A DNA stretch of 64,000 bases from Neocallimastix sp. 'constans' (lineage: Eukaryota). Positions 34,352-64,000 of this stretch are shown here, piece by piece. Both the position numbers and the translations under genes were made by a program. The stretch lies in the NCBI GenBank assembly GCA_050613775.1, contig JBODTK010000015.1, forward strand, positions 558,001-622,000, read 5' to 3'. The notes under the pieces were generated by a model. The model did no database searches, had not been told where the DNA came from, and saw nothing but the letters and a program-made list of their open reading frames with translations. Numbering within the stretch: the first letter of the stretch is position 1; every line of letters begins with the position of its first letter.

Positions 34352-36833
34352 GAATGTGAAGCATTTTGACATAATTTATGTATAATCATCATAAAATTTT
34401 GTACAATGTGTATAATATATGTAATACGCCACTATTTTCAATTTATATTTTTATTTATTGTTTTTTAGCATTAAAAAAATAAAATAAAAACAAAAAAAAA
34501 GAATAAATAAATGAATAAATGTATTTTAGCATTAAAAAAATAAAATAAAAACAAAAAAAGAATAAATTTTCTGTTGAGAATTTTATTTTATTTTTATTTT
34601 TTTTTAATTTTATTTTATTATTATATTTTATTATTAAATATTTTAATAATAAAACCTTTCCATTTTATTTTATTCAAATAAAATAAATAAAATTATATAT
34701 TTTATTATTAAATTAATTAAATAATAAAATAAAATTTATTATAATATTAAATATTTATTATTAATAAAATTTAAATATTGATATTGATATTAATAAAATA
34801 TTTTGATATTGATATTAATGAAATATTTTGATATTGATATTAATGAAATATTTTGACATTGATATTAATAAAATATATTGATATTGATATAAATATAATT
34901 TAAACTATATATATTCTAATTAATTATTATTCATATATTTAGAGTGTATTTAATTCTATTAAACATTTATACCATAAATCAATGATATCATTTTTTCACA
35001 TTTTTTATCAATTAATCGGATTCCTTTTTTTTTGTATTTTTTAATGAAATCATTGATTTCATCAGTTTTTGTTAATATTCTTTTTTTTTTTTTCCAAACT
35101 CCTTCAATTTTCCTTTTGTAATTATTGTAAGATAAAGATTCTTCTCTTTTTAAATGATAAATCAATTCATAGAAAGAAGGTTTTTTGTAAAACAATTTTT
35201 TTAAGTAATTGTTAAAAGATTCTGAAGCATTATTTGTTATGTGGTTTACATCGTTATAATAATTCCAATATTGAATATCATATTTATATAAATAAGTCTT
35301 ATTAAAATATTCCAAAAAATTTAAAAAATTGAAATAATTATATATTTGACATATAATTTTAATATAATTATAAATATCAAATATATATTCAGGATTTATA
35401 AAAGGAAAATTTGTAATAGCTTTATATAACAAATAAATTTTATGATTATTTTCAACTTCATTATAACAAAATTTATTTTTTTGAACTTCAAACGATCTTT
35501 TATAATGCCATACACAATATTTAATAGTAATATTATGAAATATTTTAATGGAAGCATTGGATATACTCTTTTCAAAATCACAAAGCAAAATTTTTGGTAT
35601 AACTATAATATTATTAATATAATTACTTATAATATTATTATTATAATTACTTTCATTCTTTTTTAATTCTTCAAATAACAATTCATAGGTTGCTTGTTCT
35701 TTATTATTTAATATAGATAGTGATGTAGTATAAAAACTATTTATTTCTGGAGCAAATACTCTTGTTATAAACACTTGATAACCAAATATTGGTGCAATAT
35801 AAAATGTACCATCAGCAAACATATGTTCGTTGTATTTTATAGACAATTCTGTTTGGAATGGGGAATGATGATTGAAAAATTATAATATTAGAATTTTTGT
35901 ATATCATAAAATTTTCATCTCTTTCGTTTATATAATATTCAGATTTATCTGGAATTTCATTAAATTTTGATATATATCAGGAGGTAGTTGTTTTTTAATA
36001 TATCTTGATATTTGGGATTTAATTGAAATATATTCAGGGCATATCAATCCAATTTCTTCAAATATTTCATTATATATGTTTTGGATTTATATCAAATGGG
36101 AATGAGGTTTTTCTTATTTCATTTTTCATTTTATGTTTTACTATTGATACAGATGCTTCATATTTTTTTCCTGGATGAGTATGTTTGTTTTCATATTTTA
36201 TTACTTTATTATTATCATTTAGAATAATGTAAGATTTATATTTTTTAACTGTTTTACATTTAGTATATTGGAATATTTTTGTATTATTCGTTATATACCA
36301 TAAATTAAATTTATATTTTCTATTTACAATGATTTGGTTTTTTTCTTTATTAGTTTCACTTATTTCTAATTGATCATCCATTTATTATAAATATTTTAAA
36401 TTAAAAGTTTTATTTTTTATATTTTAATTTTTTTTGTTTTAATCTATTTTTTTTTATCTTTTATTTTATTCTTTTTTTTTTTTTTTTTTTTTTTATTTTT
36501 TATTTTACTTTATTATTTATTTTTTTATTTTATATTTTACTTTTTTTTATATATTTTATATTTTATAATTTACTTTTATTTATTTTTTTTTTATTTTTTA
36601 TTTTACTTTATTCTTTATTTTTTTTATTTTTTATTTATTTTTTATTTACTTTATTATATATATATATATTTTTTTTACTGTAAATGTTTTTAAAATTAAA
36701 AAAAAAAAAAATAAAAATAAAAATAAAAATAAAAATAAATTTAACCCTATTCCTATTCATTTATTTTTACAAGCCACATTGTAATACATGAATAAATGAT
36801 CAAACATAAATTATGTCGAAATGCAATACTCCC
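34352..36833 (-). mobile_element. MULE DNA transposon with a defective transposase
   Basis: TIRs GAATGTGAAGCATTTTGACATAATTTATG / CATAAATTATGTCGAAATGCAATACTCCC, perfect 9-bp TSD ATAATTTAC (34343-34351, 36834-36842). Confidence 0.9.
34939..36381 (-). pseudogene. Disrupted MULE transposase
   Basis: ORFs 36070-36381 and 34959-35846: ADGTF, CDFE, YCVWHYK, TNNASESFN. Confidence 0.9.
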
Positions 36834-40770: not shown

Positions 40771-42414
40771 AATATTATTATAATAACATAAAAAAATAAC
40801 TAAAAATAGTAGAAAAAATTGATGAAATAAACATTATAATTGAAAATTATAAAAATTTGAAATTCTAGTTAATTAATAATGGAAGTCATAAAAGTAATAT
40901 TTTTGAATTATGGTTTAATTTCTTGATATAGAAAAATTCTCAACAATAAAATATAATTATACTGAACACTCAGTAAGACCGTCCAGTAGTGACAATTCTT
41001 CCAAAATGGAAGTGTGTGATAACCTCAATATTTTCACTGCCATTTAGGGGGGCTGAAACCAAGTACAGTAAACATTGGAAACAAACAAACAAACAAACAA
41101 AAAAAAAAAAAAAAAAAAAATTAAAATTCATAATATTTTTGTTTAAAAAAAGAATAATAATAATCTTTATAATTAAATTTTATTAGTTATTTATTTACTT
41201 ATAATTATTAGTTTTAAATTGTCACTTACAACTATATGCTTTGCTTTACTATTTTTCTTTATAGTATCATTTAATAATAAACTTTTTAATTAAATAAATA
41301 AATAAATTTTTATTAATAAAATTAAAAAAAAATTTTTTTAAATCACAAAATATTATTCCATACAAAGATAAAATTAATTAAATAATAAAATAATATATTA
41401 TTATTAATCATTATTATCTTATTATTATATAAATTATTATCCATATAAGGATAAAATTAAATGTTTAGTGGTAAATTTTAACATGGTTATTAACTCATGA
41501 TATAAAATGAAATATTCAAACCTTAATTAATATAAAATAGTTTTTATTATTCAAACATAAATTAATGTCATAAATCAAATTTAAATCTAATGATTTTACA
41601 ACAATTTCAATATGTGGCTTGATTTCTATATATTAATTATATTTATAATTAATGATAAATTTTATAGCATAAATCAATGTTTTAATTATATTCTTATTAT
41701 TTTATATTTTCTATTTATATAGCTATTAAACATTTCCTTAAATAATAATTATTAATAGTTTGTTCTAATAACAAGAGCAATTAATTAAATAGTTAATTAT
41801 AACTAAATAACATAAAAATAAAGCATTTCTCTGAATTAAGAGAAGTGTTGTGTTAAGATTAAAAATTATATTGTGTTTAGAAATGTTAAGTTAGTTTGTA
41901 ATTAAAAGTATAAGAAAGTTGTTAAATAGCCTTTTTAAATATATGTAGTTTTTAAATAAAAATAAATAAATAAATAAATAAATAATAAAATAATAAATTT
42001 AATAAATAAATCTCAACAAAAGTACATCGAACTTTTGAGTTGTATATCACTCATTATTATTAATTATTATTAGAATAAATTAAATATATTTAAATTAATA
42101 TTTAAATTTTTTTTTTATTTTAATTAAAACAAAATTATTAAAAATAATTTGATTTTGAAATTATTAAATATATATATATATTAGTTTTAAAATTAAAAAA
42201 TTTGGAAGTGAAAATGTCGATTTATTAATTTAAATCTTAAAAAGAGAAAAATAAAGTTTTTTAATTAATATGGAGTTAACGTTTTTTTTTTTTTTTTGTA
42301 CAAATGATGAAATATAAATATATAAAATTGACATTGCCACATATTTTTATGATTAATTGAAAATCTTTTTAATTAATTCAAAATTAATTAATCGAAACTC
42401 ATATATAATTTTTT

Positions 42415-42447
<33 letters not shown>

Positions 42448-42621
42448 AATTTATTATTTAATTAATGCATCAGTAATTCACTATAATACTTTATTATGAA
42501 TTATATTTCAATTAAATTTTAACCTTAAAAAAAATATATAAATATATATAAAATGGAAATATATTCTTTTTTTTTCATTTTTATTCAACGTTTCTTTTAA
42601 TACTTTTAATATTATAATAAA

Positions 42622-45600
42622 ATGCTACTGAAATATTTTAAGTAATATATATATATTAATGCATAATTTAGTTGTTAAAGATATAATGTTTTACATAATT
42701 TTCTAAATTATTTAAATTTAATTTATAATTTCTTAATAAAAATATAGAATACTATATATTGTTTTATTTCAAGAATTTTTAATAAATTTTGTAAAAGCCC
42801 AGAGTAAATTACCTATAATTAAAATTTCAAATTTCATTATTTTATTTATTTTAAATATAAAAATAATTTAATAAATTATTATTTATTATTATTATTATTA
42901 TTTTAAAAATATGAATATGACTTAAATAACTAAAATTTATCATTAAATAACATATCGATATTATTTTATGCATAAATAATAAATATTTAATGTTAATATA
43001 TTTATTATTTCAATATATTTTTTAATTTTATTCCTTTTTTTATTTAAATAAAAATACAATAATTTAGATTTTAAGGAAGGTATGAAAAAATAATATATTT
43101 TAAAAAAATATATCAGTGATTTTTTTTTTTTTTACTTTGTAGTTTAGAGATAAAAATTATAAAGATATTTTTTATTTTTGTTATAGATATAGCTAATTTT
43201 TTAAATGGTTAAAAATAAATCATTTAAAAAATTAACTACAAAGAAATTTGAAATATTAGGTTTAATAAATTATATTTGTATTTAATTTTTGAGTTTATAA
43301 ATTTTATACTGAAATACTAAAAAAAAAAAAACTAATATATTTATAATATTTCTTTAGTTTGTTCTGCTGGTAAATTGGATAAATATATATATATATATAT
43401 ATACATTTAGTATATAATAAATTTAAAATAATTATATATATTAAAGTTATTGCCTTTTTTTACAATATTACTATATATTTAAATATATATATGTAAATAT
43501 TATTAATACAATATTTATGAATAGGGGTGGATACATGTACCGAGTGTAAATATCATTTATAATATATTGATATAATAAAATATATTATTATAATTAAATT
43601 ATTGTTAGAAAATGTTAAAGTTGCCTTTTTTATTATAATAATAATCTACTTATTAATATTTAACATTTCTTTTTAAATAATTTATTTGTAATTTTATAAA
43701 ATATTTGAAAAATATTGTAAAATAATAATAAAAATAAAGCCTGCAAGAGTTTTTGTAAGTCTTTCTTAATTATAAAATTTTATTTATTATTATTAATAAT
43801 ATTATATTTAATATAATAATATTATAAATTTTATCATTTTTAATTATATTTTTTATTAACACTATATATAATGCTTTTATTATAAAATATATTTAATAAT
43901 TTAATAAAAATTACATTTAATATTATTATTTTTTAAACACTTTAAAAAACATAAAATTTATTATTTAATATTAAAAATGGTTATTATATATATCATAAAA
44001 TTTATAATTTTATATTATAAACTATTTTACATATATGTAGTCGGTAAGTAAAACAACATAATTAAAAATATTTAATCATTATTTAAATTATTCTATTTAC
44101 TTCAATATTAAATGTATTTATTATATTTGGGCTAACTATATATATTTTCTATTTTATTTGCTTATTTAGAAGGTAGATATATATAAGTATTATTAAATAA
44201 TGTTCAATACATTTTTAATACATTCAGATTAATTATATATTAAATATATTAAATGTATTTTAAAATTTATTTGTTTAAATTCATTTATTTAAATAGTTCG
44301 TAAGTATAATTATATATTTAAATATATTATTAAAAAATAGTAATAATAAAAAAAAAACTAAAAATATTTGTTGAATAATACTTATTATAAATACTTTAAA
44401 TAAATAATTATTATAAAATTTTATATAAAAAAATATTTTATATAAATAGATCGTAAGTATAAATATATATTTAAATATACTATAAAATTTTTTTGAACGT
44501 TATTGTAAATAACATAAATTTATTATAAATATTTTTAAATATTTAAATATTATAAAATTTATACTACAAATTATTTTATATAAATAGCCTGTAAATATCA
44601 ATTTATGTTAAGTTATTAAATTAAATATTATTGAAATTAATTTGAAAAAACCATACATTTATTATAAATATTATAAATATTTAAATATTATTAATTATAT
44701 ACCACAAATTATTTCATATAAATAGGGAGTAAGTATAAATTTATGTTTAGTTATTATTAATAATTTTTGAAATTAATTGTAAAAAATATGTACTTACTAT
44801 CAATCAATCAAATATTTATTTATTAATTATTATCAATCATCCAAATATTTAATTATTATAAATTTTATAACACAAATTATTTCATATAAATAGCCTGTAA
44901 GTATAAATATACATTTAGATATTATTAAAATTTTTTGAATAATTTGTAAATAACATATAACTATTTTCAATTATTCATATAATTAATTAATATATATTTT
45001 ATATTACAAATCATTTTATTTAAATAGCCTGTAAGTATAAATATACATTTAGATATTATTAAAATTTTTTGAATAATTTGTAAATAACATATAACTATTT
45101 TCAATTATTCATATAATTAATTAATATATATTTTATATTACAAATCATTTTATTTAAATAGACGGTAAGTATGAATATATATTTAAATAGATCATTAAAA
45201 TTTTTTTTGAAGAAAACTGATTTATAGATAGCATATATTAATTATCAATCATGCAAATATTCGATTATAATAAATTTTATAATACAAATTATTCCATATA
45301 AATAGTCCGTAAGTATAAATATATATTTAGATATTATTAAAATTTTTTGAATAATTTGTAAATAACATATATCTATTTTCAATTATTCATATAATTAATT
45401 AACATATATTTTATATTCCATATCATTTTATTTAAATAGACGGTAAGTATAAATATAAATTTAAATGTATTATTAAAATTTTTTTAAAAACTAATTTTAG
45501 ACAACATATATTTATTATAAATATATTAAATTTTAACTACAAATTACTTTATCTAAATAGGCAGTAAGTATAAATATATATTTAAATGTATCATTAAAAT

Positions 45601-48600
45601 TTTTTTAAAAACTAATTTTAGACAACATATATTTATTATGAATATTTTAAATATTGAATAATTGTAAATTTTATAATACAAATTATTTCATATCAGTAGG
45701 GGGTAAATATGAATTTATGTTTAGTTATTATTAAATATTATTGAAATTAATATGTAAATAACATATACTTATTATCAATCATTCAAATATTTGATTATTA
45801 TAAATTTTGTTTTATAAATTCTTTTATATAAATAGGATGTAAGTATAAATTTATGCTTAAATATATTATTAAAATTTTTTAAAATTAATTGTAAAATAAT
45901 ATATAGATTATTAATCATTAAAGTATTTAATCCTTAAAATATTTAATTATTATAAAATAAAAGTAAATGACATATATTTATTATTAATCATTCATATATA
46001 TTCGATTATTATAAATTTTGCATTATAAATTGTTTTATATAAACAGGGAGTAAGTATAAATATAAAATTAAATTTATTATTAGTTTTTTTTGAAATTAAT
46101 TTGTAAATTATACTCATTTATCAACCATTCGAATATTTAATTATTAATAATTTTATAATATAACTGGTTTAATGTAAATAGCTCGTAAGTACAAATATAT
46201 ATTTAATTTTATTATTAAAAAATTTTTTAAATGAATTTTTAATAACATATATTTATTATCAATAATTCAAACATTTAATTATAAATTTTATATTAATAAT
46301 AATATATAAATAGCATGTAAGTATATTTATTTAAGTAGATTAATAAAATTTTTTTTAAAATTATATATATTTATAATTAATCATTTAAATATTTAACTAT
46401 TATAAAATTTATATTATAAATCATTTCATTAAAAATCATTTATATAATTTGATTATTATTATTAATATTCTATTACAAATTATTTCATATAAATAGGGCG
46501 TAAGTATAAATATATAATTAAATTTATTATTAGTACTTTTTTGAAATTAATTGTAAATAACCTAAATTTTTTATCAATCATTTAAATATTTAATTATTAT
46601 ATATTTTATATTATTAATTATACTATTTAAATTTAAATAGCTATTAGTAAGTATAAATGTTTATTTAACTTTATTATTAAAAATTGTCAAATATAATCAT
46701 AAATAACATATATTTATTATACATATCTTCAATATTTAATTATCTAAAAATTATTTCATATTAATAGATAGTAAGTATAAATATATTCTAATTTAATATA
46801 AATAATTTATTGAAATTAATGATAAATAAAAAATATTTATAATAAATTTTTTAAAATATTTAATTATTATAATATTTATTCAAAAATTTAATTATATAAA
46901 TAGGCCGTAAGTATAAATATATAATTAAATTTATTATTAATATTTTTTTTTTTTGAAAATAATAATAAATAACCTATATTTATTATAAATATTTTAAATA
47001 TGTAATTATTATAATTTTTATAAAAAAATATTTAAATAAATAGTAGGTAAGTATAAGTTTATACTAAAATGATATTAAAAATTTTTGAAATGCTATTGTC
47101 AATAAACATATATTTATTATCAATTAAATTAAAATATTTAATTATTATCAAATTTTTATTATAAATTATTTCATATAATAGCTAGTAAGTATAAGTATAA
47201 ATATATATATAAGTATATTATAAAAAATTTTAAAACTAATTGTATTAACATATATTTATTATAAATATTTTTAATATTTAATAATTATACAATTTATACT
47301 ACAAATTGTTTTATATAAATAGGCCGTAAGTTTAAATACATATATTAAGTATACTTTAAAAAATTTTTGAAACTAATTGTATTAACATATATTTATTATT
47401 AATTAAATTAAAATATTTAATTATCAAATTTTTATTATAAATTATTTCATATAATAGTTAGTAAGTATAAATATATATATAAGTATATTATAAAATTTTT
47501 TTGAAACTAATTGTATTAACATATATTTATTATAAATATTTTTAATATTTAATAATTATACAATTTATACTACAAATTGTTTTATATAAATAGGAAGTAA
47601 GTTTAAATATATATATATTAAGTATACTTTAAAAAATTTTTGAAACTAATTGTATTAACATATATTTATTATAAATATTTTTAATATTTAATAATTATAC
47701 AATTTATACTACAAATTACTTTATCTAAATAGACTGTAGGTTTTAAATATATATTTAAATGGATTATTAGAATTTTTTAAAATTAATTTTATAATAATAT
47801 TTATTATCAATCGTTCAAATATTTAATTATTATAAATTTTATAATATAAATTGTTTCATATAATTAGATTATAAAGTATAAATAATATACTTTAAAATAT
47901 TTATAAAAATTTAAAATTTTTTGAAATTAATTTTAAATATCATATATTTATAATAATTTTTTTATATATTAATTATTATAAATTTTTTTTTTACTATAAA
48001 TTATATAAATAAATAGGCAGTAAATATAAATAAATAATTAATTATATTAAAAATAACATTTGAAATTGTAAATAACAAATATTTTAATAATATTAATAAT
48101 ATTATATTACAAATTATTTCATATAAAAAGATGGTAAGATTAATTTTTTGTTTAATTGTTATTAAAAAATTTTAAAAATAATTGAAAATAACATATATTT
48201 ATTATAAATATTTTTAATATTTAATAATTATAAAATTTTAACTACAAATTACTTTATCTAAATAGGCAGTAAGTATAAATATATATTTAAATGTATCATT
48301 AAAATTTTTTTAAAAACTAATTTTAGACAACATATATTTATTATAAATATTTTAAATATTGAATAATTGTAAATTTTATAATACAAATTATTTCATATCA
48401 ATAGGGGGTAAATATGAATTTTATGTTTAGTTATTATTAAATATTATTAAAATTAATATGTAAATAATATATACTTATTATCAATCATTCAAATATTTGA
48501 TTATTATAAATTTTGTATTATAAATTCTTTTATATAAATAGGCCGTAAGTATAAATAATATACTTTAATATTATATTAAAAAATTAAAAATTTATAATAA

Positions 48601-51600
48601 ATAACATATATTTATCAAAAATATTTTCAATATTTGTTTTTATTAATACTATACTACAAATTATTTTATTATAAACAGCGTGTAAGTAAATATATAATTA
48701 AATATATAATAATTTTTTTTGGAATTAATTGTATAATATATATTACATATATTTATTTTCAATCATTCAAATATTTGATTATTATTAATTTTATGCTGCA
48801 AAATATTACATGTAAATAGGCGGTAAGTATAAATATATAATTAAATATTTTATTAATAGTTTTTAAAACTAATTATAAATAATTAATATCTATTATCAAT
48901 TATTCAAAAATTTAATTATTGTAAATTTTTTAAACTGTTTCATACAAATAGTTAGTAAGTATAAATAATATAATTAAATGTATTAATAAAATTTTTTAAA
49001 AATTAATTGTAAATAACATATATTTATTATAAATATTATAAATATTAAATAATTGTAATTTTTAAAATACAAATTATTTCATATCAATAGGAGGTAAATA
49101 TGAATTTTATGTTTAGTTATTATTAAATATTATTAAAATTAATATGTAAATAATATATACTTATTATCAATCATTCAAATATTTGATTATTATAAATTTT
49201 GTATTATAAATTCTTTTATATAAATAGGCCGTAAGTATAAATTTATCCTAAAAGATATTATTAAAAAATTTTGAAATTAATTGTATGTTGCATTTATTTA
49301 TTATTTATATTCTAAATATTTGATTATTAAAAAATTATGATACAAAATATTTTGAATAAATAGCCTGTAAGTATAAATTTATGTTTAAATATATTATTAA
49401 AATTTTTTAAAATTAATTGTAAAATAATATATAGATTATTAATCATTAAAGTATTTAATTCTTAAAATATTTAATTATTATAAATTAATATTATAAATTA
49501 TTTCATATAAATAGATAGTAAGTATAAATATATAGTTTAATATATATATAAAATATTATAAAATTAATTATTAATAAACTCTATTTGTTATAAATCATTT
49601 ATATAATTTGATTATTATTAATATTATACTACAAATTATTTCATATAAATAGAAAGTAAGTTTAAATATATATTTAAATATATTGTAAAAAAAAAAAAAG
49701 AAAATTAAAATAAATTGTAAATAAACATATATTTAATATAAATATTTTAAATATTTAAATATTATTAATATTATACTACAAATTATTTTGTATAAATAGA
49801 AAGTAAGTATAAATTTATATTTTTATATATTTTTGAAATTAATTGAAAATAACTAATGTTTATTATAAATATGTTAAATATTTAATTATTATTAATTTTA
49901 TACTACAAAATTATTTCATATAAATAGGTGGTATGTATAAATATATATTTAATTTTTATTATTAAAATTTTTTGGATGTAATTGTAAATAACAAAATATT
50001 TATTTATTATTAATTTTATACTACAAAATATTTCATATAAAATAGTTGGTATGTATAAATTTATGCCTGGATATTATTAAAAATTTTTGAAATTATTAAA
50101 ATTAATTTAATAAACATATATTTATATATAAATATATATAATTAATGTTTGATAATTTTATATTTTTAATTTTATATTGCTAATTGTTTCAAATGAAAAG
50201 AACGTGAGCATATATATAAATATAAATTTAAAAATATATTAAATAATTATATATGAGTATTAAAAAATATATTTAAAATATTTAATAAATTTTAATATTA
50301 TATAATTAATAATTCTGTATAAAATAGTCAGTAAGTATAAATAAATATATATTACTTTGTTAATAAAATTATTTAAATTATAATAATTAAAATACATTTT
50401 AAAAAAAAATTTAAAAAAATTATATATTAATTTATATATTTTATTTATTGTTACTCATAAATAGTATGTAAGTATAAATATATAGTAAATACATTATAAA
50501 TGCATTTAAATTTATTATAATTAATTTATTTATAAATTATATCTTAATAAATATTTTAAATAATAATATATATTTTTAATTTTTATTTAAAAATTTATTT
50601 TATATAAATAGTTGGAACGGATGGTAAATATGAAATAATGAAATTATATGAATTAATAATAAAAAAATTTTTTTTTAATAAAAGTGCTTAAAAAATATTA
50701 ATAATATTTAAATTAAATTGTACATAAAATATATCTAATTTATTTTAAAAAAAATAAAATAATTTAAAATAAAATTATTTTATTTTATTTTTTTTTTTAA
50801 ATAAAATGGTATATTTAAATAGAAGTAAAGATAATTATAAAGTTAAATTTATTTTATAAGTTTATAGAATATTTTAATAATATCTTATATATATTTAATT
50901 TTTACTTATTTTTATGATAATTTTAATTATTCCCAAATAAAAAATGTCAATAAAATATATCATAAAACTTTAAATATTAATATATTATAAAAGGTATATA
51001 TATTTATATAAATTTATTATAATTAATAATTCATAAAATATACATTTACTAATTATATTTATATTTAAATTTATTCAATACAATACAATATAAATATAAA
51101 TAGGATGTAAGTATAAATTATCATATTGAAATGTTAATTTAAACGTTATTAAATATAAATAAATCAAATATTCAAATCTTTAAAATTGATTTTTATAAAA
51201 TTAATATTATATCATAAATTAAATTTACTTTAATAGTAGGTAAATACTGAATATTAGAAAATTATCAAAATTAATAAAATTAAATATATATAAATTCATA
51301 TTTTAAATATTTTATCTATAAAAAAAATATTTTTTCTTATAAGATAACAAAAGTGGTAAGTATATTATAATATTATTATAAATAAATAAATATATATATA
51401 ATATTAATTAAAGCTATAAAAAATTAAAATAGAATTATTTTTTTTACTAACTTAATTCAATATTTTAAAAATAATTAATATTTATATTAATGTAAAGGAT
51501 ATAATGATTGTGTTAATCGTAAGTAAAATTAAAGTTTTTAAATAATAATAATTATTAAATAAAAAAAAATTAATATGAATAATATATTTAAATAATTATT

Positions 51601-54600
51601 TTAAAAACTAATTAAATTAAATAATATTAAATTATATATTATAAATGTTAAAATTTATTGAATTTTGATATTTAAATTGATACGAACATTTTTTTTTTCA
51701 TAAATTATATAATATAATTCTTAAAATATTATTTAAAGAATGCACTGGTAAGTATTAAAAAAATAATATATATATGTATATATATTTATTTATTTAAAAG
51801 TATTATAAATTCATCAAAATTAAAATTTTAAATAATATTTTTATCAATATATCAAATTTATATTACATAAATAATTCATATAATTAAATAATAATAATAT
51901 TTTATTATTATTATTATTATTATTATTATAATTATTATTATTATTATAATTATTATTATTATTATTATTTATAAATTAAAAATTTATTTTTTTGCTTCTA
52001 CTTTGTTGAATTTTTAAATATTTAATTATTTAGATATTTGTGGTAAGTAATTTTACTATAAATTTTTTTTCTTTTTAAAATAAATATATATATATATATT
52101 ATATATATATATAATTATTAATGATTTCATATAAAAATATTAGAAATATAAAAAAATAATTTTTAAGCATTAAAAATATTTTATTAATAATATTTTTTTA
52201 ATTAATTTACTATTTATTTTTATTATTTTTTATAATTTATAAATTATCATTAATAGAAACGGATAATAATTGTCAAACATGTAATTATAATAAATAATTT
52301 TTTATTTTTTTAATTAAAATATTTATATTAAATTCAATTAGAATTTTATATATTAAATTAATAAATATTTCTTTATATATTTTAAAAAAAATTCACTTTT
52401 AAAATGTGAATAGGTTGTAAATCTGGTAATTAAATATATATATATATACAAAATAAAATAAAAAAAAATTCTTTTTAAAGTTTTATATTTATAAGGATTA
52501 ACAATAAGAAAATAATTTTTTTTATTTTAATAAAAATTTTTTATTAAATTAAATGAAACATATAAAAAAAAATATATTTTAAAAATTTATAAAAAAATAT
52601 ACAACTCGATTAAAAATATTAAATAATTTAAAAAAAAAATTTAATTATTTAAAAAATTTATTTTAACATATATGTATCGAAAATAAAAATATATAATTTT
52701 TTTTTATAATTTAATATTTTTACATTTCTAATTTAAATTATAAGCTTGTGAAGAAGGTAAATAAAATTTTAATAATAAATTAATCATAATAATATGATAA
52801 TATAATATAATATAATGTGATATAATATGATAAAATTATTAAACATTTATTTTATTTTAATTTCTTTTCTATATGATTTATAAATTATCAATATTATTTA
52901 TCATTATATCTACAAATTTTAAAATATATTTTAACAAATAATTTTTAGGTCTTAAATCATTTAATAAAGGTATAAATAAATAATAGTATGATAAATATAA
53001 AATGAATCCAAAAAATAATATTTAAAATTTTTATAATTTTTATAATTTTTATTACAAAAAATAAATGTATTTTTTATGTTAATAAATATAATATATATAT
53101 ATTATATTATATATATTGTTTAATTTGATAAAATATAAAAATTAAAACATTTATATATTAAATTTTGAATCAATAAAAATAAAAAAAAAACTTAAATGAA
53201 TAAAATATAACAGATAATAATTCCAGAATAACAATAAAACCAAATTACTGCGAAACTTGTAAGTATTATTAATATATATTAAAATTAAGGATTAATCGTC
53301 AAAAATAAAAAAAAATAATAATAAAAGTAATAGTAATTCCTATTCCAAAATACCTAATAATATAATAATAATAATATAAATTTAAAGAAAAAAATATGAA
53401 AATATAAAAATGTAAAAATTAGTAATAAAGTTAAAAAATATACAAATATGTATTAATTAAAAATTATATAAGATTCATTAATGTAAAGAAAAAATTTAAA
53501 AATTTCTTTACATTAATGAAAGTTTTTTCTTTTATCATCAATATTTAAAAAAAAATATGTATATTTATTTAATTATTTAGATATAAAATATTTTTTTGAA
53601 ATTATAATTTTATTATTGAAATATATAATTATCTTTATATATATTTAGTTTATTTTAATGGATAAAAATATAAGAATTTAAATAATTAAACTATTTGTTA
53701 TTAATATATATTTTTATAATTAATATTAATAAACTTGAAAAATAATAATAATTATAATAATAAAAAACATAAATAAAATAAAATGAAAAGGTAAGCTATT
53801 TATTGAATGAATATAATAATAAATTAAAATTATAAAAATAATAATTAAATATTTTATATTAAGACATAATAATATTGAAATTCTTTAATAAATAATTAAA
53901 ATATTGATGTTTTTAACAAATATATTCTATTAATATATAAAATAAAACTCTATTATTTTATAATAATAAAATAATTTATATGATTAAATATTTTTTTTTA
54001 AAAAATAATAGTTTGTACAGAAGGTAAAAATATTAAATATAATTGAATGGTATTTTTATATTTTAAATATATTACAAAGAAGCTTTTCTAAAAATATATT
54101 AACTTGTTTCCTTTTTTATAATTAATTAATTAATTAATTATTTATTTATTTATAATAAAAGAATGGAATGGATGTGAAAACTATTTTAATGGTAAATAAA
54201 TATTATTGCTTAATTAAAATAAATAAACAAAAAATAATAATAGCATTAAAAATAATTATTAATATCTTTAATATTAATATTTATAAATATTATTATTTAA
54301 TGGAAAAATAATTATTAAATAAAATTTTAAATATATTTCAAAATATTTTAATTAATATATATTCGAAAATAAAAATATTTCAATTATATAAATGAATAAA
54401 AATATACTTATATATATTTTAATTTAATTAATAATTTATTTATTCATTGTTGATATTATATCCATTATTATTTGTAATGTATCATTAATTAATAAATGAT
54501 TTTATTCAAAGAAAATGATTGCGAAAAGGGTAAAATAAAATTATATTATTATATTTTAATTTTTTATTGAAATATTTATAATTTTTTTATTAGTAATAAA

Positions 54601-57600
54601 TATAAATTTATTTATTAGAAATTTATGAATAATTAATATATTTTTTTATAATAAATATTTTATTAAAATTAATTGATAAAATAGAAGAAGAAGAAAATGA
54701 AGAAGAGAATGAAGAAGAAGAAGAAGAAGAAGAGAATGAAGAGGAAGAAGAGGAAGAAGAAGAAAATGAAGAAGAAGAAGAAGAGAATGAAGGAGAAGAA
54801 GAAAATGAAGAGGAAGAAGAACAAGAGAATGAAGAGGAAGAAGAAGAAGAAGAAGAGAATGAAGAAGAAGAAGAAGAAGAAAATGAAGAAGAAGAAGAAG
54901 AGAATGAAGAAGAAGAAGAAGAAGAAGAGAATGAAGAAGAAGAAGAAGAAGAAGAGAATGAAGAAGAAGAAGAGAATGAGGAAGAAGAAAATGAAGAAGA
55001 AAATGAAGAAGAAGAAGAAGAAGAAGAAAATGATGAGGAAGAAAATGAGGAAGAAGAAGAGAATGAGGAAGAAGACGAGAATGAAGAGGAAGAAGAAGAA
55101 GAGAATGAAGAAGAAGAAGAAGAAGAAGAAAATGAAGAAGAAAATGAAGAAGAAGAAGAAGAAGAGAATGAAAAGGAAGAAGAAGAAGAAAATGAAGAAG
55201 AAAATGATGAGGAAGAAAATGAGGAAGAAGAAGAGAATGATGAAGAAGAAGAAGAGGAGAATGAAGAAGAAGAAGAAAATGATGAGGAAGAAAATGAGGA
55301 AGAAGAAGAGAATGAGGAAGAAGACGAGAATGAAGAGGAAGAAGAAGAAGAAAATGAAGAAGAAGAAGAAGAAGAGAATGAGGAAGAAGAAGAGAATGAA
55401 GAGGAAGAAGAAGAAGAGAATGAAGAAGAAGAAGAAGAAGAAGAAAATGAAGAAGAAAATGAAGAAGAAAATGAAGAAGAAGAAGAAAAAGAAGAAGAAG
55501 AAGAAAATGAAGAAGAAGAAGAAAAAGAAGAAGAAGAAGAAAATGAAGAAGAAAATGAAGAAGAAGAAGAAGAAGAAGAAAATGATGAGGAAGAAAATGA
55601 GGAAGAAGAAGAGAATGAGGAAGAAGACGAGAATGAAGAGGAAGAAGAAGAAGAGAATGAAGAAGAAGAAGAAGAAGAAGAAAATGAAGAAGAAAATGAA
55701 GAAGAAGAAGAAGAAGAGAATGAAAAGGAAGAAGAAGAAGAAAATGAAGAAGAAAATGATGAGGAAGAAAATGAGGAAGAAGAAGAGAATGATGAAGAAG
55801 AAGAAGAGGAGAATGAAGAAGAAGAAGAGAATGAGGAAGAAGAAAATGAAGAAGAAAATGAAGAAGAAGAAGAAGAAGAAGAAGAAGAAGAAAATGATGA
55901 GGAAGAAAATGAGGAAGAAGAAGAGAATGAGGAAGAAGACGAGAATGAAGAGGAAGAAGAAGAAGAAAATGAAGAAGAAGAAGAAGAAGAGAATGAGGAA
56001 GAAGAAGAGAATGAAGAGGAAGAAGAAGAAGAGAATGAAGAAGAAGAAGAAAAAGAAGAAGAAGAAGAAAATGAAGAAGAAGAAGAAGAAGAAGAAAATG
56101 ATGAGGAAGAAAATGAGGAAGAAGAAAATGAAGAAGAAGAAGAAGAAGAAGAAGAGAATGAAGAAGAAGAGAATGAAGAAGAAGAAGAAAATGAGGAAGA
56201 AGAAAATGAAGAAGAAAATGAGGAAGAAGAAAATGAAGAAGAAAATGAAGAAGAAGAAGAAGAAGAGAATGAAAAGGAAGAAGAAGAAGAAGAAGAGAAT
56301 GAAAAGGAAGAAGAAGAAGAAAATGAAGAAGAAAATGATGAGGAAGAAAATGAGGAAGAAGAAGAGAATGATGAAGAAGAAGAAGAGGAGAATGAAGAAG
56401 AAGAAGAGAATGAGGAAGAAGAAAATGAAGAAGAAAATGAAGAAGAAGAAGAAGAAGAAGAAGAAGAAGAAAATGATGAGGAAGAAAATGAGGAAGAAGA
56501 AGAGAATGAGGAAGAAGACGAGAATGAAGAGGAAGAAGAAGAAGAAAATGAAGAAGAAGAAGAAGAAGAGAATGAGGAAGAAGAAGAGAATGAAGAGGAA
56601 GAAGAAGAAGAGAATGAAGAAGAAGAAGAAAATGAAGAAGAAAATGAAGAAGAAGAAGAAAAAGAAGAAGAAGAAGAAAATGAAGAAGAAGAAGAAAATG
56701 AAGAAGAAGAAGAAAAAGAAGAAGAAGAAGAAAATGAAGAAGAAAATGAAGAAGAAGAAGAAGAAGAAGAAAATGAAGAGGAAGAAGAAGAAGAAGAAGA
56801 GAATGAAGAAGAAGAAGAAGAGAATAAAGAAGAAGAAGAAGAAGAAAATGAAGAAGAAGAGAATGAAGAAGAAGAAGAAGAGAATGAAGAAGAAAATGAA
56901 GAAGAAAATGAAGAAGAAGAGAATGAAGAAGAAGAAGAAGAAGAAAATGAAGAAGAAAATGAAGAAGAAGAAGAAGAAGAAGAAAATGAAGAAGAAAATG
57001 AAGAAGAAGAAGAAAAAGAAGAAGAAGAAGAAAATGAAGAGGAAGAAGAAGAAGAGAATGAGGAAGAAGAAGAGAATGAAGAGGAAGAAGAAGAAGAAGA
57101 AGAAGAGAATGAGGAAGAAGAAGAGAATGAAGAGGAAGAAGAAGAAGAAGAAGAAGAGAATGAAGAAGAAGAAGAAGAAGAAGAAAATGAAGAGGAAGAA
57201 GAAGAAGAAGAAGAGAATGAAGAGGAAGAAGAAGAAGAAAATGAAGAAGAAGAAGAAGAAGAAAATGAAGAAGAAGAAGAAGAAGAGGAGGAGAATGAAG
57301 AAGAAGAAGAGAATGAGGAAGAAGAAGAGAATGAGGAAGAAGAAGAAGAAGAAGAAAATGAAGAAGAAAATGAAAAAGAAGAAGAAAAAGAAGAAAATGA
57401 AGAAGAAGAAGAAGAAGAAGAAGAAAATGAAGAAGAAGAAGGAGAGAATGAAGAAGAAGAAGAAAATGAAGAGGAAGAAGAACAAGAGAATGAGGAAGAA
57501 GAAGAGAATGAAGAAGAAGAAGAAAATGAAGAGGAAGAAGAACAAGAGAATGAGGAAGAAGAAGAGAATGAAGAAGAAAATGAAGAAGAAAATGAAGAAG

Positions 57601-60600
57601 AAGAAGAAAATGAAGAAGAAGAAGAAAATGAAGAAGATGAAGAAGAAGAAAATGAAGAAGATGAAGAAGAAGAAAATGAAGAAGAAAATGATGAGGAAGA
57701 AAATGAGGAAGAAGAAGAAAATGAAGAAGAAGAAGAAGAAGAAGAAGAGAATGAAGAGGAAGAAGAAGAAGAAAATGAGGAAGAAAAGAATGAAGAAGAA
57801 GAAGAAGAAGAAGAAAATGAAGAAGAAGAAAATGAGGAAGAAGAAGAAAATGAAGAAGAAGAAGAAGAAGAGAATGAGGAAGAAGAAGAAGAAAATGAGG
57901 AAGAAGAGAATGAAGAAGAAGAAGAAGAAGAAGAAAATGAGGAAGAAGAGAATGAAGAAGAAGAAGAAGAAGAAGAAAATGAAGAAGAAGAAGAAGAAGA
58001 AGAGAATGAAGAGGAAGAAGAGGAAGAAGAAGAAAATGAAGAAGAAGAAGAAGAGAATGAAGGAGAAGAAGAAAATGAAGAGGAAGAAGAACAAGAGAAT
58101 GAAGAGGAAGAAGAAGAAGAAGAAGAGAATGAAGAAGAAGAAGAAGAAGAAAATGAAGAAGAAGAAGAAGAGAATGAGGAAGAAGAAGAGAATGAAGAGG
58201 AAGAAGAAGAAGAAGAAGAAGAAGAGAATGAAGAGGAAGAAGAAGAGAATGAAGAAGAAGAAGAAGAAGAGGAGAATGAAGAAGAAGAAGAAAATGAAGA
58301 AGAAAATGAAGAAAATGAGGAAGAAGAAAATGAGGAAGAAGAAAATGAGGAAGAAAATGAAGAGGAAGAAGAAGAAGAAGAAGAGAATGAGGAAGTAGAA
58401 AATGAGGAAGAAGAAAATGAGGAAGAAGAAAATGAAGAAGAAGAAAATGAAGAAGAAGAAGAAGAAGAAGAAAATGATGAGGAAGAAAATGAGGAAGAAG
58501 AAAATGAAGAAGAAGAAGAAGAAGAAGAAGAGAATGAAGAAGAAGAGAATGAAGAAGAAGAAGAAAATGAGGAAGAAGAAAATGAAGAAGAAGAGAATGA
58601 AGAGGAAGAAGAAGAAGAAAATGAAGAAGATGAAGAAGAAGAAAATGAAGAAGAAAATGATGAGGAAGAAAATGAGGAAGAAGAAGAAAATGAAGAAGAA
58701 GAAGAAGAAGAAGAAGAGAATGAAGAGGAAGAAGAAGAAGAAAATGAGGAAGAAAATGAAGAGGAAGAAGAACAAGAAGAAGAGAATGAGGAAGAACTAA
58801 ATGAGGAAGAAGAAGAAGAAAATGAGGAAGAAGAAGAAGAAGAAGAGAATGAAGAGGAAGAAGAAGAAGAAAATGAAGAAGAAGAAGAAGAGAATGAGGA
58901 AGAAGAAGAGAATGAAGAGGAAGAAGAAGAAGAAGAAGAAGAAGAGAATGAAGAGGAAGAAGAAGAGAATGAAGAAGAAGAAGAAGAAGAGGAGAATGAA
59001 GAAGAAGAAGAAAATGAAGAAGAAAATGAAGAAAATGAGGAAGAAGAAAATGAGGAAGAAAATGAAGAGGAAGAAGAAGAAGAAGAAGAGAATGAGGAAG
59101 AAGAAAATGAAGAAGAAGAAAATGAAGAAGAAGAAGAAGAAGAAGAAAATGATGAGGAAGAAAATGAGGAAGAAGAAAATGAAGAAGAAGAAGAAGAAGA
59201 AGAAGAGAATGAGGAAGAAGTAAATGAGGAAGAAGAAGAAAATGAAGAAGAAGAAAATGAAGAAGAAGAGAATGAAGAGGAAGAAGAAGAAGAAAATGAA
59301 GAAGATGAAGAAGAAGAAAATGAAGAAGAAAATGATGAGGAAGAAAATGAGGAAGAAGAAGAAAATGAAGAAGAAGAAGAAGAAGAAGAAGAGAATGAAG
59401 AGGAAGAAGAAGAAGAAAATGAGGAAGAAAAGAATGAAGAAGAAGAAGAAGAAGAAGAAGAAGAGAATGAAGAGGAAGAAGAAGAAGAAAATGAGGAAGA
59501 AAAGAATGAAGAAGAAGAAGAAGAAGAAGAAAATGAGGAAGAAAATGAAGAGGAAGAAGAACAAGAAGAAGAGAATGAGGAAGAACTAAATGAGGAAGAA
59601 GAAGAAGAAAATGAGGAAGAAGAAGAAGAAGAAGAGAATGAAGAGGAAGAAGAAAATGAGGAAGAAGAAGAAAATGAAGAAGAAGAAAATGAAGAAGAAG
59701 AAAATGAAGAAGAAGAAGAAGAAGAGAATGAAGAAGAAGAAGAAAATGAAGAAGAAGAAGAAGAAGAAAATAAAGAAGAAGAAGAAGAAGAAGAAGAAGA
59801 GAATGAGGAAGAAGAAGAAGAAGAAAATAAAGAAGAAGAAAATGAAGAAGAAGAAGAAGAGAATGAAGAGGAAGAAGAAGAAAATGAGGAAGAAGAAGAA
59901 GAAGAAGAAAATGAAGAAGAAGAAGCTGTTGAAGAAGAAGAAGAGAATGAAGAAGAAGAAGAAAATGAGGAAGAAGAAGAAGAAAATGAAGAAGAAGAAG
60001 AAGAGAATGAAGAAGAAGAAGAAGAAAATGAGGAAGAAGAAAATGAAGAACAAGAAAATGAAGAAGAAGAAAATGATGAAGAAGAAAATGATGAAGAAGA
60101 AAATGAAGAAGAAGAAGAAGAAGAAAATGAGGAAGAAGAAAATGAAGAAGAAGAAGAAAATGAAGAAGAAGAAGAAAATGAAGAAGAAGAAGAAAATGAG
60201 GAAGAAGAAGTAGAAAATGAAGAAGAAGAAGAAGAAGAAGAAAATGATGAAGAAGTGAATAAAGAAGAAGAAGAAAATGAAGAAAAAGAGAATGAAGAGG
60301 AAGAAGAAGAAGAAAATGAGGAAGAAGAAAATGAGGAAGAAAATGAAGAGGAAGAAGAAGAAGAAGAAGAGAATGAAGAAGAAGTAAATGAGGAAGAAGA
60401 AGAAAATGAAGAAGAAGAAAATGAAGAAGAAGAAGAAGAGAATGAAGAAGAAGAAGAAAATGAAGAAGAAGAAGAAGAAGAAGAAAATGAAGAAGAAGAA
60501 GAAGAAGAAAATGAGGAAGAAGAAGAAGAAGAAGAAAATGAAGAAGAAGAAGAAGAAGAAAATGAGGAAGAAGAAAATGAGGAAGAAAATGAAGAGGAAG

Positions 60601-63600
60601 AAGAAGAAGAAGAAGAGAATAAGGAAGAAGAAAATGAGGAAGAAGAAAATGAGGAAGAAAATGAAGAGGAAGAAGAAGAAGAAGAAGAGAATGAGGAAGA
60701 AGAAAATGAAGAAGAAGAAAATGATGAAGAAGAAGAAGAAGAAGAAAATGAGGAAGAAGAAAATGAAGAAGAAGAAAATGAAGAAGAAGAAAATGAAAAA
60801 GAAGAAAATGAAGAAGAAGAAAATGAAAAAGAAGAAGAAGAGAATGAGGAAGAAAATGATGAAGAAGAAAATGAGGAAGACAATGAAAAAGAAAATGAAG
60901 AAGAAAATGAAGAAGAAGAAGAAGAAGAGAATGAAAAGGAAGAAGAAGAAGAAAATGAAGAAGAAAATGATGAGGAAGAAAAAGAAGAAGAAGAAGAAAA
61001 TGAAGAGGAAGAAGAACAAGAGAATGAAGAGGAAGAAGAAGAAGAAGAAGAAGAGAATGAAGAAGAAGAAGAAGAAGAAGAAGAGAATGAAGAAGAAGAA
61101 GAAGAGAATGAAGAAGAAAATGAAGAAGAAGAAAATGAAGAGGAAGAAGAAGTAGAAAATGAAGAGGAAGAAGATGTAGAAAATGAAGAGGAAGAAGAAG
61201 AAGAAGAAGAGAATGAGGAAGAAGAAAATGAAGAAGAAGAAAATGATGAAGAAGAAGAAGAAGAAGAAAATGAGGAAGAAGAAAATGAAGAAGAAGAAAA
61301 TGAAGAAGAAGAAAATGAAAAAGAAGAAAATGAAGAAGAAGAAAATGAAAAAGAAGAAGAAGAGAATGAGGAAGAAAATGATGAAGAAGAAAATGAGGAA
61401 GACAATGAAAAAGAAAATGAAGAAGAAAATGAAGAAGAAGAAGAAGAAGAGAATGAAAAGGAAGAAGAAGAAGAAAATGAAGAAGAAAATGATGAGGAAG
61501 AAAAAGAAGAAGAAGAAGAAAATGAAGAGGAAGAAGAACAAGAGAATGAAGAGGAAGAAGAAGAAGAAGAAGAAGAGAATGAAGAAGAAGAAGAAGAAGA
61601 AGAAGAGAATGAAGAAGAAGAAGAAGAGAATGAAGAAGAAAATGAAGAAGAAGAAAATGAAGAGGAAGAAGAAGTAGAAAATGAAGAGGAAGAAGAAGTA
61701 GAAAATGAAGAGGAAGAAGAAGTAGAAAATGAAGAGGAAGAAGAAGTAGAAAATGAAGAGGAAGAAGAAGTAGAAAATGAAGAGGAAGAAGAAGTAGAAA
61801 ATGAAGAGGAAGAAGAAGTAGAAAATGAAGAGGAAGAAGAAGTAGAAAATGAAGAGGAAGAAAATGAAGAAGAAGAAGAAGAAAATGAGGAAGAAGAAAA
61901 TGAAGAAGAAGAAGAAGAAAATGAGGAAGAAGAAAATGAAGAAGAAGAAGAAGAAAATGAAGAAGAAGAAGAAGAAATTGAAGAGAATGAAGAAGAAGAA
62001 GAGAATGAAGAAGAAGAAGAGAATGAAGAGGAAGAAGAAGAAGAAAATGAAGAAGAAAAAAAAGAAGAGGAAGAAAATGAAGAAGAAGAAGAAGAGGAAG
62101 AAAATGATGAGGAAGAAAATGAGGAAGAAGAAGAAGAAGAAGAAGAAAATGAGGAAGAAGAAAATGAAGAAGAAGAAGAAGAAATTGAAGAGAATGAAGA
62201 AGAAGAAGAGAATGAAGAAGAAGAAGAGAATGAAGAGGAAGAAGAAGAAGAAAATAAAGAAGAAGAAGTAGAAAATGAAGAAGAAGAAGCTGTTGAAGAA
62301 GAAGAAGAAGAAACTGTTGAAGAAGAAGAAGAAAAAGAAGAAGAAGAAGAAAATGATGAAGAAGAAAATGAAGAAGAAAATGAAGAAGAAGAAGAAGAAG
62401 AGAATGAGGAAGAAAATGAAGAGGAAGAAGAAAATGAGGAAGAAGTGAATGAAGAAGAAAATGAAGAAGAAGAAGAAGAAGAGAATGATGAAGAAGAAAA
62501 TGAAGAAGAAGAAGAAGAAGAGAATGATGAAGAAGAAAATGAAGAAGAAGAAGAAGAAGAAGAGAATGATGAAGAAGAAAATGAAGAAAAAGAAGAAGAA
62601 GAGAATGATGAAGAAGAAGAAGAAGAAGAAGAGAATGAAGAGGTAGAAGAAGAGAATGAGGAAGAAGAAGAAGAAAATGAGGAAGTAGAAGAAGAGAATG
62701 AGGAAGAAGAAGAAGAAAATGATGAAGAAGAAAATGAAGAAGAAGAAGAAGAAGAGAATGAAAAGGAAGAAGAAGAAGAAAATGAAGAAGAAAATGATGA
62801 GGAAGAAAATGAGGAAGAAGAAGAGAATGAAGAAGAAGAAGAAGAAGAAGAAAATGAAGAAGAAAATGAAGAAGAAGAAGAAGAAGAGAATGAAAAGGAA
62901 GAAGAAGAAGAGAATGAGGAAGAAAATGATGAAGAAGAAAATGAGGAAGACAATGAAGAAGAAAATGAAGAAGAAAATGATGAAGAAGAAAATGAAGAAG
63001 AAGAAGAAGAAAATGAAGAGAATGAAGAAGAAGAAGAGAATGAAGAGGAAGAAGAAGAAGAAAATGAAGAAGAAGAAGCTGTTGAAGAAGAAGAAGAAGA
63101 AACTGTTGAAGAAGAAGAAGAAAATGAAGAAGAAGAAAATGAGGAAGAAGAAGAAGAGAATGAGGAAGAAGAAGAAGAAAATGATGAGGAAAATGAAGAA
63201 GAAGAAAAAGAGAATGAAGAAGAAAATGATGAGGAAGAAAATGAAGAAGAAGAAGAGAATGAAGAGGAAGAAGAAGAAGAAAATGAAGAAGAAGAGTGTG
63301 TTGGTTGTAATGAAGAAGAAGAGAATGAAGAAGAAGAAAATGAAGAAGAAGAAGAAGAAAATGAGAAAGAAGAAAATGAAGAAGTAAAAGAAGAAAATGA
63401 AGAAGAGAATGAAGAGGAAGAAGAAGAAAATGAAGAAGAAAATGAAGAAGAAAATGAAGAAGAAGAAAATATTGAAGAAGAGTGTGCTGGTTGTAATGAA
63501 GAAGAAAATGAAGAAGAAGAAGAAGAAGAGAATGATGAAGAAGAGAATGATGAAGAAGAAAATGATGAAGAAGAAAATGAAGAAGAAGTAATTGAAACGG

Positions 63601-64000
63601 AAGAAAGAGATATTGAAGGAGAAGAAGAAAATGATAAAGAAGAAAATGATGAAGAAGAAGAAGAAGAAGAAGAAAATAAAGAAGAAGAAGAAGAAGAAGA
63701 AGAGAATAAGGAAGAAGAAGAAGAGAATGATGAAGAAGAAAATGATGAAGAAGAAGAAGAGAATGAAGAAGAAGAAGAAAATGAAGAAGAAGAAGAACAA
63801 GAGAATGAAGAGGAAGAAGAAGAAGAAGAAGAAAATGAAGAAGAAGAAGAAGAAGAAGAAAATGAAGAAGAAGAAGCTGTTGAAGAAGAAGAAGAAGAAA
63901 CTGTTGAAGAAGAAGAAGAAAATGAGGAAGAAGAAAATGAAGAAGAGAATGAAGAAGAAGAAGAAGAAGAGAATGAGGAAGAAAATGAAGAGGAAGAAGA
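42622..64000 (+). CDS. Predicted ~68-exon micro-exon gene: secreted Cys-rich head with a 3-nt-exon array plus a giant Glu/Asn stalk (3' end outside the window)
   Basis: Exons read by hand (AG|exon|GT): 42622-42641, 42748-42803, 43068-79, 43358-69, 43525-45, 43740-54; 46 array exons from 44041 to 50467; then 50612-23, 51104-06, 51237-39, 51344-55, 51498-518, 51739-47, 52034-42, 52257-80, 52414-25, 52745-56, 52949-69, 53214-58, 54012-23, 54162-91, 54512-29, 54685-end. All-exon splicing is stop-free: MLLKYFKILYIVLFQEFLINFVKAQNFKEVCSAGVDTCTESCKSF-FEVHPWTSYVHGRGWTPWPINSLASLRNCNGRGPCVRGPYKKSVELI-FGTDGLDNKSGYNDCVNQCTDICETDNNCQTCCKSACEEGLKSFNKDNNSRITIKPNYCETFCTEEWNGCENYFNENDCEK-EEEENEEENE... Confidence 0.82.
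44030..50480 (+). repeat. Tandem array of ~135-bp intron/micro-exon cassettes (46 intact, 1 with a broken donor)
   Basis: Consensus ...TACAAATTATTTCATATAAATAG|NNN|GTAAGTATAAAT... Exons: 44041 TCG, 44170 AAG, 44297 TTC, 44450 ATC, 44588 CCT, 44726 GGA, 44894 CCT, 45028 CCT, 45162 ACG, 45306 TCC, 45440 ACG, 45561 GCA, 45700 GGG, 45836 GAT, 46047 GGA, 46182 CTC, 46314 CAT, 46497 GGC, 46641 CTATTA, 46768 ATA, 46904 GCC, 47044 TAG, 47182 CTA, 47323 GCC, 47458 TTA, 47594 GAA, 47733 ACT, 48017 GCA, 48131 ATG, 48266 GCA, 48405 GGG, 48542 GCC, 48679 CGT, 48820 GCG, 48952 TTA, 49091 GAG, 49228 GCC, 49364 CCT, 49515 ATA, 49653 AAA, 49800 AAA, 49928 GTG, 50046 TTG, 50201 AAC, 50328 TCA, 50465 TAT. Confidence 0.92.
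54685..64000 (+). repeat. Coding (GAA)n/AAT low-complexity repeat: ~3100 codons, mostly Glu with interspersed Asn
   Basis: Preceded by a TAG acceptor (54682-54684) in phase with the upstream exon. The in-register antisense Phe/Ile ORFs (54669, 58797, 59586) share one frame, so there is no frameshift. No sense stop seen. Confidence 0.9.

Follow-up and report, generated by a model that had tools for sequence, protein, structure and literature searches.

In Neocallimastix sp. 'constans', an anaerobic gut fungus of a culturable and harmless genus, we found an array of codon-sized exons that probably makes one loop of a predicted cysteine-rich domain differ between transcripts. These phase-1 micro-exons appear to have expanded by duplication of units, their triplets change fast, and their inclusion is probably variable. 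The array works like the codon-sized exon arrays of truffles, outside that gene family. The window analyzed is a 64,000-nucleotide stretch of contig JBODTK010000015.1, and all positions below are counted from its first base.

The array (44041..50467, forward strand) consists of 46 intact units with paralogous introns between them, and each unit is flanked by a canonical AG before and GT after it. The initial annotation had described 46 triplets. The count of intact units stands, with the correction that 45 are triplets and one is a six-base exon, and a dead 47th unit has to be added (Table 1). There are 31 distinct triplets among the 45 three-base exons. We scanned for the pattern (A/C/T)AG, followed by k bases and a donor. 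At k=3, the interval 44000-50500 gave 45 matches on the forward strand and none on the minus strand, and the 42.5 kb left of the array gave only 5, on par with other values of k. A pattern spanning three units matched 17 times in the window versus 0 times in 100 shuffles. Two of the 3-nt exons (47044-47046 in the array and 51237-51239 beyond it) are themselves TAG and thus form tandem acceptors. Use of the second acceptor would leave an exon of zero length, which would be a second route to skipping.

Table 1. Exons and related features of the host gene, by position in the window. The flanking exons are predicted from splice signals.
Feature	Position	Strand	Remarks
Possible 6-nt exon, upstream	42798..42803	+	Predicted; least certain
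12-nt exon, upstream	43068..43079	+	Predicted
12-nt exon, upstream	43358..43369	+	Predicted; with Cys
21-nt exon, upstream	43525..43545	+	Predicted; with Cys
15-nt exon adjoining the array on its 5' side	43740..43754	+	Predicted; final base T
Only 6-nt exon of the array	46641..46646	+	AG precedes, GTAAGT follows
Dead 47th unit	47869..47871	+	Donor GT lost, acceptor retained; occupies the 281-nt gap of the scan
12-nt exon adjoining the array on its 3' side	50612..50623	+	Predicted
Two 3-nt exons beyond the main array	51104-51106, 51237-51239	+	Predicted
Twelve symmetric exons, 9-45 nt	51344..54529	+	Predicted; Cys-rich with C-x3-C; starts at 51344, 51498, 51739, 52034, 52257, 52414, 52745, 52949, 53214, 54012, 54162, 54512
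Glu-rich exon	54685..64000	+	No stop before the window end; at least 3,104 codons

All array introns are in phase 1, as had been claimed initially. Phase 1 is the only frame that stays open through the 20 flanking exons, the array and the glutamate-rich exon, and phases 0 and 2 are ruled out for the gene by stops. All 20 predicted flanking exons are multiples of three (3-45 nt) and free of stops in phase 1, and gaps of 480 and 753 nt between them may hide more. Together they encode 102 residues with 14 cysteines and six C-x3-C motifs, so the cysteine-rich flanks described earlier are borne out. Including every array exon would add 47 residues whose composition looks random (5 Pro, 5 Gly, 4 Arg and 3 Trp), unlike that of the flanks; the path that skips the array entirely is also open in frame. 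We considered a 2-nt exon at 50823-50824, within the 480-nt intron, and rejected it because the frame shift would force phase 2 upstream, with stops. The 753-nt intron contains a strong donor at 53791 that lacks a fitting acceptor. Each site could be either a dead exon or a point of recursive splicing.

Over its at least 3,104 codons the last exon encodes 2,479 Glu (80%) and 456 Asn (15%). It also carries two short cysteine-containing motifs, near 63297 and 63483, and the C-terminus of the protein lies outside the window. The cysteine pattern and the acidic stalk suggest that the protein is extracellular. Neither a start exon nor a signal peptide was found: in 40900-43350 a single ATG leads to an open phase-1 donor, and it gives three residues. 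A hydrophobic stretch that begins with an ATG (42553-42642) resembles a broken signal-peptide exon, and no frame through it reaches a phase-1 donor. A segment of the Glu-rich exon scored against nothing in a weak protein search (8,000 candidates of 229-2,000 aa), and the exact 21-nt upstream exon had no match in metagenome_contigs. The neighbouring FLYWCH protein (36073-36381) belongs to a 90% cluster with 12 of its 24 members named, all of them Neocallimastix among the 15 rows listed, which points to a Neocallimastix-like lineage. Of four proteins looked up, two had a cluster, and the cluster of the second has no named organism. Further to the left, positions 1-38760 are dense in transposon remnants, namely LTR-retrotransposon-like gag/pol frames and several FLYWCH/MULE-like transposase pieces, labeled partly by eye from their translations.

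The array region has a GC content of about 10%, and its introns, 111-208 nt long and typically about 134 nt, contain 457 G or C among 5,881 bases. Pairwise identity between them has a median of 0.74 and reaches 1.0 in the best matches; for 12 other introns of this gene it is 0.58. The array introns are tandem duplicates. Introner-type mobile introns are similar introns dispersed across unrelated genes; within the window, the similar intron copies are confined to the single array and have been duplicated in multi-unit blocks, with their triplets included. Rfam gave no match in 42000-55000. An assembly artefact is improbable here: of the 24 sequencing runs listed, 11 contain half or more of the words in 43300-53290. 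These runs come from 10 studies, of which one may be the source of the assembly and eight are same-year feces metagenomes that may represent a single campaign. A run share of 0.77 of the locus words means that at least 64% of the words of the array are present.

AG and GT are both retained in 46 of 47 units. In comparison, agreement with the consensus is only 82.5% over 22 nearby intron columns (binomial P 1e-14, or 0.002 using the best intron column). The units were originally located by their AG/GT signals, but their regular spacing has no room for a dead unit beyond the one at 47869. The three exon columns vary by 1.93, 1.90 and 1.98 bits, versus 0.26-1.7 bits in the flanking columns. In the four closest non-redundant pairs of units, differences affect 4 of 12 bases in exons and 46 of 1,060 in introns (P about 0.001), so that the triplets have diverged about eight times as much as the introns; the test is approximate, as it uses four pairs with common introns. 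These results support a diversifying signature on the triplets.

GC is 49-56% at the three triplet positions. At the wobble base it is about 50% in the array versus 20% in the flanking exons, and the third-position GC of the long frames in the window is 13-29%. The wobble C:T ratio is 18:11 in the array (9:9 over the 31 distinct triplets) versus 11:51 in the flanking exons (Fisher P 6e-5 and 0.011, respectively). Selection at the protein level cannot explain the C-rich wobble base because C and T are silent there in any join. Part of the excess of C may reflect common descent of a few triplets. More speculatively, and we consider this rather improbable, a process may target the bases of the micro-exons regardless of codon position, whether by targeted mutation, by RNA-templated conversion between splice sites or through a splicing code by which each triplet sets its own rate of inclusion, and feed a combinatorial library of split-codon loops on an extracellular protein. 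If true, micro-exon-targeted diversification would constitute an antibody-like repertoire outside animals and NLRs, in an early-diverging fungus.

Any subset of the array exons stays in frame, as the initial annotation had stated, and 55.3% of all 2^46 subsets are free of stops (about 45% carry one). For subsets of one and two exons the stop-free share is 85%. The potential repertoire is large, since subsets of one, two and three exons give 19, 258 and 2,685 distinct stop-free peptides. Skipping had also been expected to rewrite amino acids; the gain in amino-acid types would be only two, from 17 on the all-exon path to 19 via any join. The statement that no neighbouring exons join into a stop is correct (0 of 47 joins) but has no value as evidence, because 16% of 20,000 shuffles of the exon order do likewise (P=0.16). 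Stop-making joins number 46 among the 1,128 ordered exon pairs, and the mean of the shuffles is 38. No avoidance of stops was detected for joins up to two, three or five exons apart or for all pairs (P 0.40, 0.53, 0.08 and 0.83). We therefore rejected stop avoidance as support for skipping.

In the mechanism that we propose, unequal crossing-over would multiply the unit of intron plus triplet, and selection would retain the splice signals and favor new triplets. The sequence itself directly supports these two steps. Each intron would be recognized singly (intron definition), and among near-identical introns the spliceosome would pair a donor with a near or a distant acceptor, producing order-preserving subsets of the exons. 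A junction codon would then combine one base from the preceding exon used and two from the next. Because the introns are in phase 1, each skip would shorten the protein by one residue and rewrite the junction codon. Isoforms that contain a stop, about 15-45% according to how many exons are used, would disappear or yield short products. The remaining products would expose a variable loop in a head with disulphide bonds, held out by a long acidic stalk, and the protein would act outside the cell in non-self recognition or adhesion. Diversity would thus have two layers: a DNA-level one of duplication and selection for new triplets, which has left its signature in the array, and an RNA-level one of skipping. 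Combinatorial splicing of the array is plausible by analogy with the nank genes of Tuber.

The same locus could be diverse solely at the DNA level, through unequal crossing-over and selection on triplets between isolates, if all 46 exons were included constitutively in a single 47-residue loop. The block duplications in the array agree with such a history, the dead unit would cost only one codon, and fungi are described, in the accessible part of the source, as splicing exons of 1-3 nt whose omission often leads to stops (PMC12230235). The open all-exon path is a weak fit, as a stop-free order of the exons is within chance (P=0.16). Constitutive inclusion would also mean that 46 splicing events are spent on 141 nt, to no gain if nothing is skipped, and the Tuber precedent is alternatively spliced as far as the available reports describe it. 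We consider constitutive inclusion unlikely, if the most credible of the alternatives. A Dscam-like choice of exactly one array exon, which would change two residues, seems very improbable. The units are paralogous, as in the mutually exclusive clusters of Dscam, but 7 of the 46 single choices give an immediate stop, which is about the random rate and led us to reject the one-of-46 model. It would also yield just 19 distinct stop-free peptides, and neighbouring exons could be joined, given that the introns (111-208 nt) have sufficient length for it.

It is also conceivable that the array is mostly spliced out as a block, or that it is a selfish or neutral expansion of intron units, in which case the triplets would either have no role or act in the RNA, through the strength of splice sites or a delay of transcription. 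The no-exon path is in frame, the wobble GC is not shaped by codon bias, and the window is full of repeats and transposon remnants. Under neutral expansion, however, decay should have destroyed about half of the splice signals, where 46 of 47 units are intact, and the triplets should be as AT-rich as the introns, where about 50% GC is found. We consider this reading improbable. Variable inclusion of duplicated, fast-changing phase-1 exons remains our preferred explanation.

Similar arrays occur in metagenomes. A generic three-unit pattern matched at least 124 stretches in metagenome_contigs, which represent at least 123 loci (L025 and L026 lie on one contig), and some loci are the same array in related samples. 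Arrays of at least 10 units occur at 57 of the 123 listed loci with five or more distinct triplets and at a further 10 with fewer. None of the 123 is an allele of the Neocallimastix array because none is equally AT-rich (lowest GC 0.22). Flanking frames were listed for 28 loci, and 52 frames were scanned in Pfam. Four loci (L079, L050, L058 and L025) have a frame with NACHT-type and ankyrin domains directly upstream of the array, and at L019 an array of 19 triplet units (L019:1438-2698) lies directly upstream of a frame with a HET domain. Most of the other scanned loci gave no informative Pfam match. In L058 and L025 the array is in phase 0, in the loop just before an ankyrin repeat; no donor was located for L079 and L050. 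At L058:9935-11056 and L025:9466-11006 (array-strand), the flanking exons leave the loop about two residues short of the usual consensus length of ankyrin loops. This shortfall suggests that a transcript of either locus uses just a small number of its 16-21 codon exons.

Introns are about 70 nt long in most metagenome arrays versus about 134 nt in Neocallimastix. Among the 31 long variable arrays that we tabulated, most are AT-rich at the third base and free of stops in phase 0, whereas the Neocallimastix array is near-uniform at its three bases. In L065, L111 and L123, GC is lowest at the second base; going by composition only, these arrays may be in phase 1, and split codons may not be unique to the Neocallimastix locus. 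Very long variable arrays with no recognized host gene include L045 (71 units), L035 (51), L123 (47), L065 (45), L111 (43) and L077 (42). Four further loci (L006, L030, L053 and L114) have 33-51 units of near-invariant GGA at 72-nt spacing and are either poly-Gly micro-exon arrays or plain satellites. In viral_contigs the three-unit pattern matched five loci. All have an identical set of three triplets and none extends into a longer array, so we dismissed them as a single chance event. The 57 variable arrays among the 123 loci listed suggest widespread, mostly unannotated diversification of recognition loops, which gene finders read as satellite DNA.

The initial annotation saw the closest likeness in CDR3 loops or Dscam, and we disagree: the nearest precedent is a published fungal system of codon-sized exons. 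In Dscam a cluster of paralogous exons diversifies a surface protein, the exons are half or whole domains, and one is chosen. The array shares with it the cluster of paralogous exons, and a one-of-46 rule fits the array badly. The micro-exon genes (MEGs) of Schistosoma, as far as the accessible text of the sources describes them, have exons mostly of 15 nt and introns of 0.1-5 kb, are made of micro-exons over most of their coding sequence, begin with a signal peptide and are restricted to flatworms (10.1101/2023.06.21.545858, PMC4350168, PMC4015677). They resemble the present gene in their runs of small symmetric exons, and its 20 flanking exons look MEG-like; exon-skipping variants and fast evolution are described for them, and the triplets here also change fast. 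Unlike the MEGs, the Neocallimastix gene has about 450 nt in micro-exons versus more than 9,300 nt in a single exon, its array consists almost purely of 3-nt exons, and its lineage is fungal. In Coprinopsis cinerea, the available part of one report gives 27 exons of 3 nt in 26 genes, and exons no longer than 3 nt in 89 gene models (PMC12230235). Fungal spliceosomes can thus handle 3-nt exons, although those of C. cinerea are scattered singly and form no tandem hypervariable array.

The closest counterpart is found in the NACHT-ANK (nank) genes of Tuber, in which tens of 3-bp exons are alternatively spliced, according to the accessible passages of five papers that all cite Iotti et al. 2012 (PMC4986451, PMC3689799, PMC9815663, PMC10197012, PMC13449251). 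No paper among the best 20 of 357 treated micro-exons together with both anaerobic fungi and Neocallimastix, and none was found that joins micro-exons with Neocallimastix or its relatives (most subscription papers lay outside the search); the literature found on codon-sized or mini-exons in fungi consists of citations of the truffle case or unrelated work. By this literature, codon-sized exon arrays are in print for just one truffle gene family. The concept is thus already known. What the Neocallimastix locus adds is another lineage, a host gene that is not an NLR and codons split between exons: it carries the design into an early-diverging phylum and into a protein predicted to be extracellular. 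As in the nank genes, 3-nt exons stand in tandem by the tens in a fungal coding region, here between canonical splice signals, and the nank arrays have been proposed, in the text available, to diversify a recognition surface, as we propose here. The differences lie in the host, the phase and the lineage. No reading frame of at least 100 aa lies between 38762 and 54623, and none for NACHT or ankyrin domains was seen in the host, which is a predicted cysteine-rich domain built from micro-exons on a glutamate stalk. Its array is in phase 1, whereas the nank-type metagenome loci L058 and L025, which stand in for Tuber in this comparison, are in phase 0. Finally, the nank genes belong to Ascomycota and the present array to Neocallimastigomycota.
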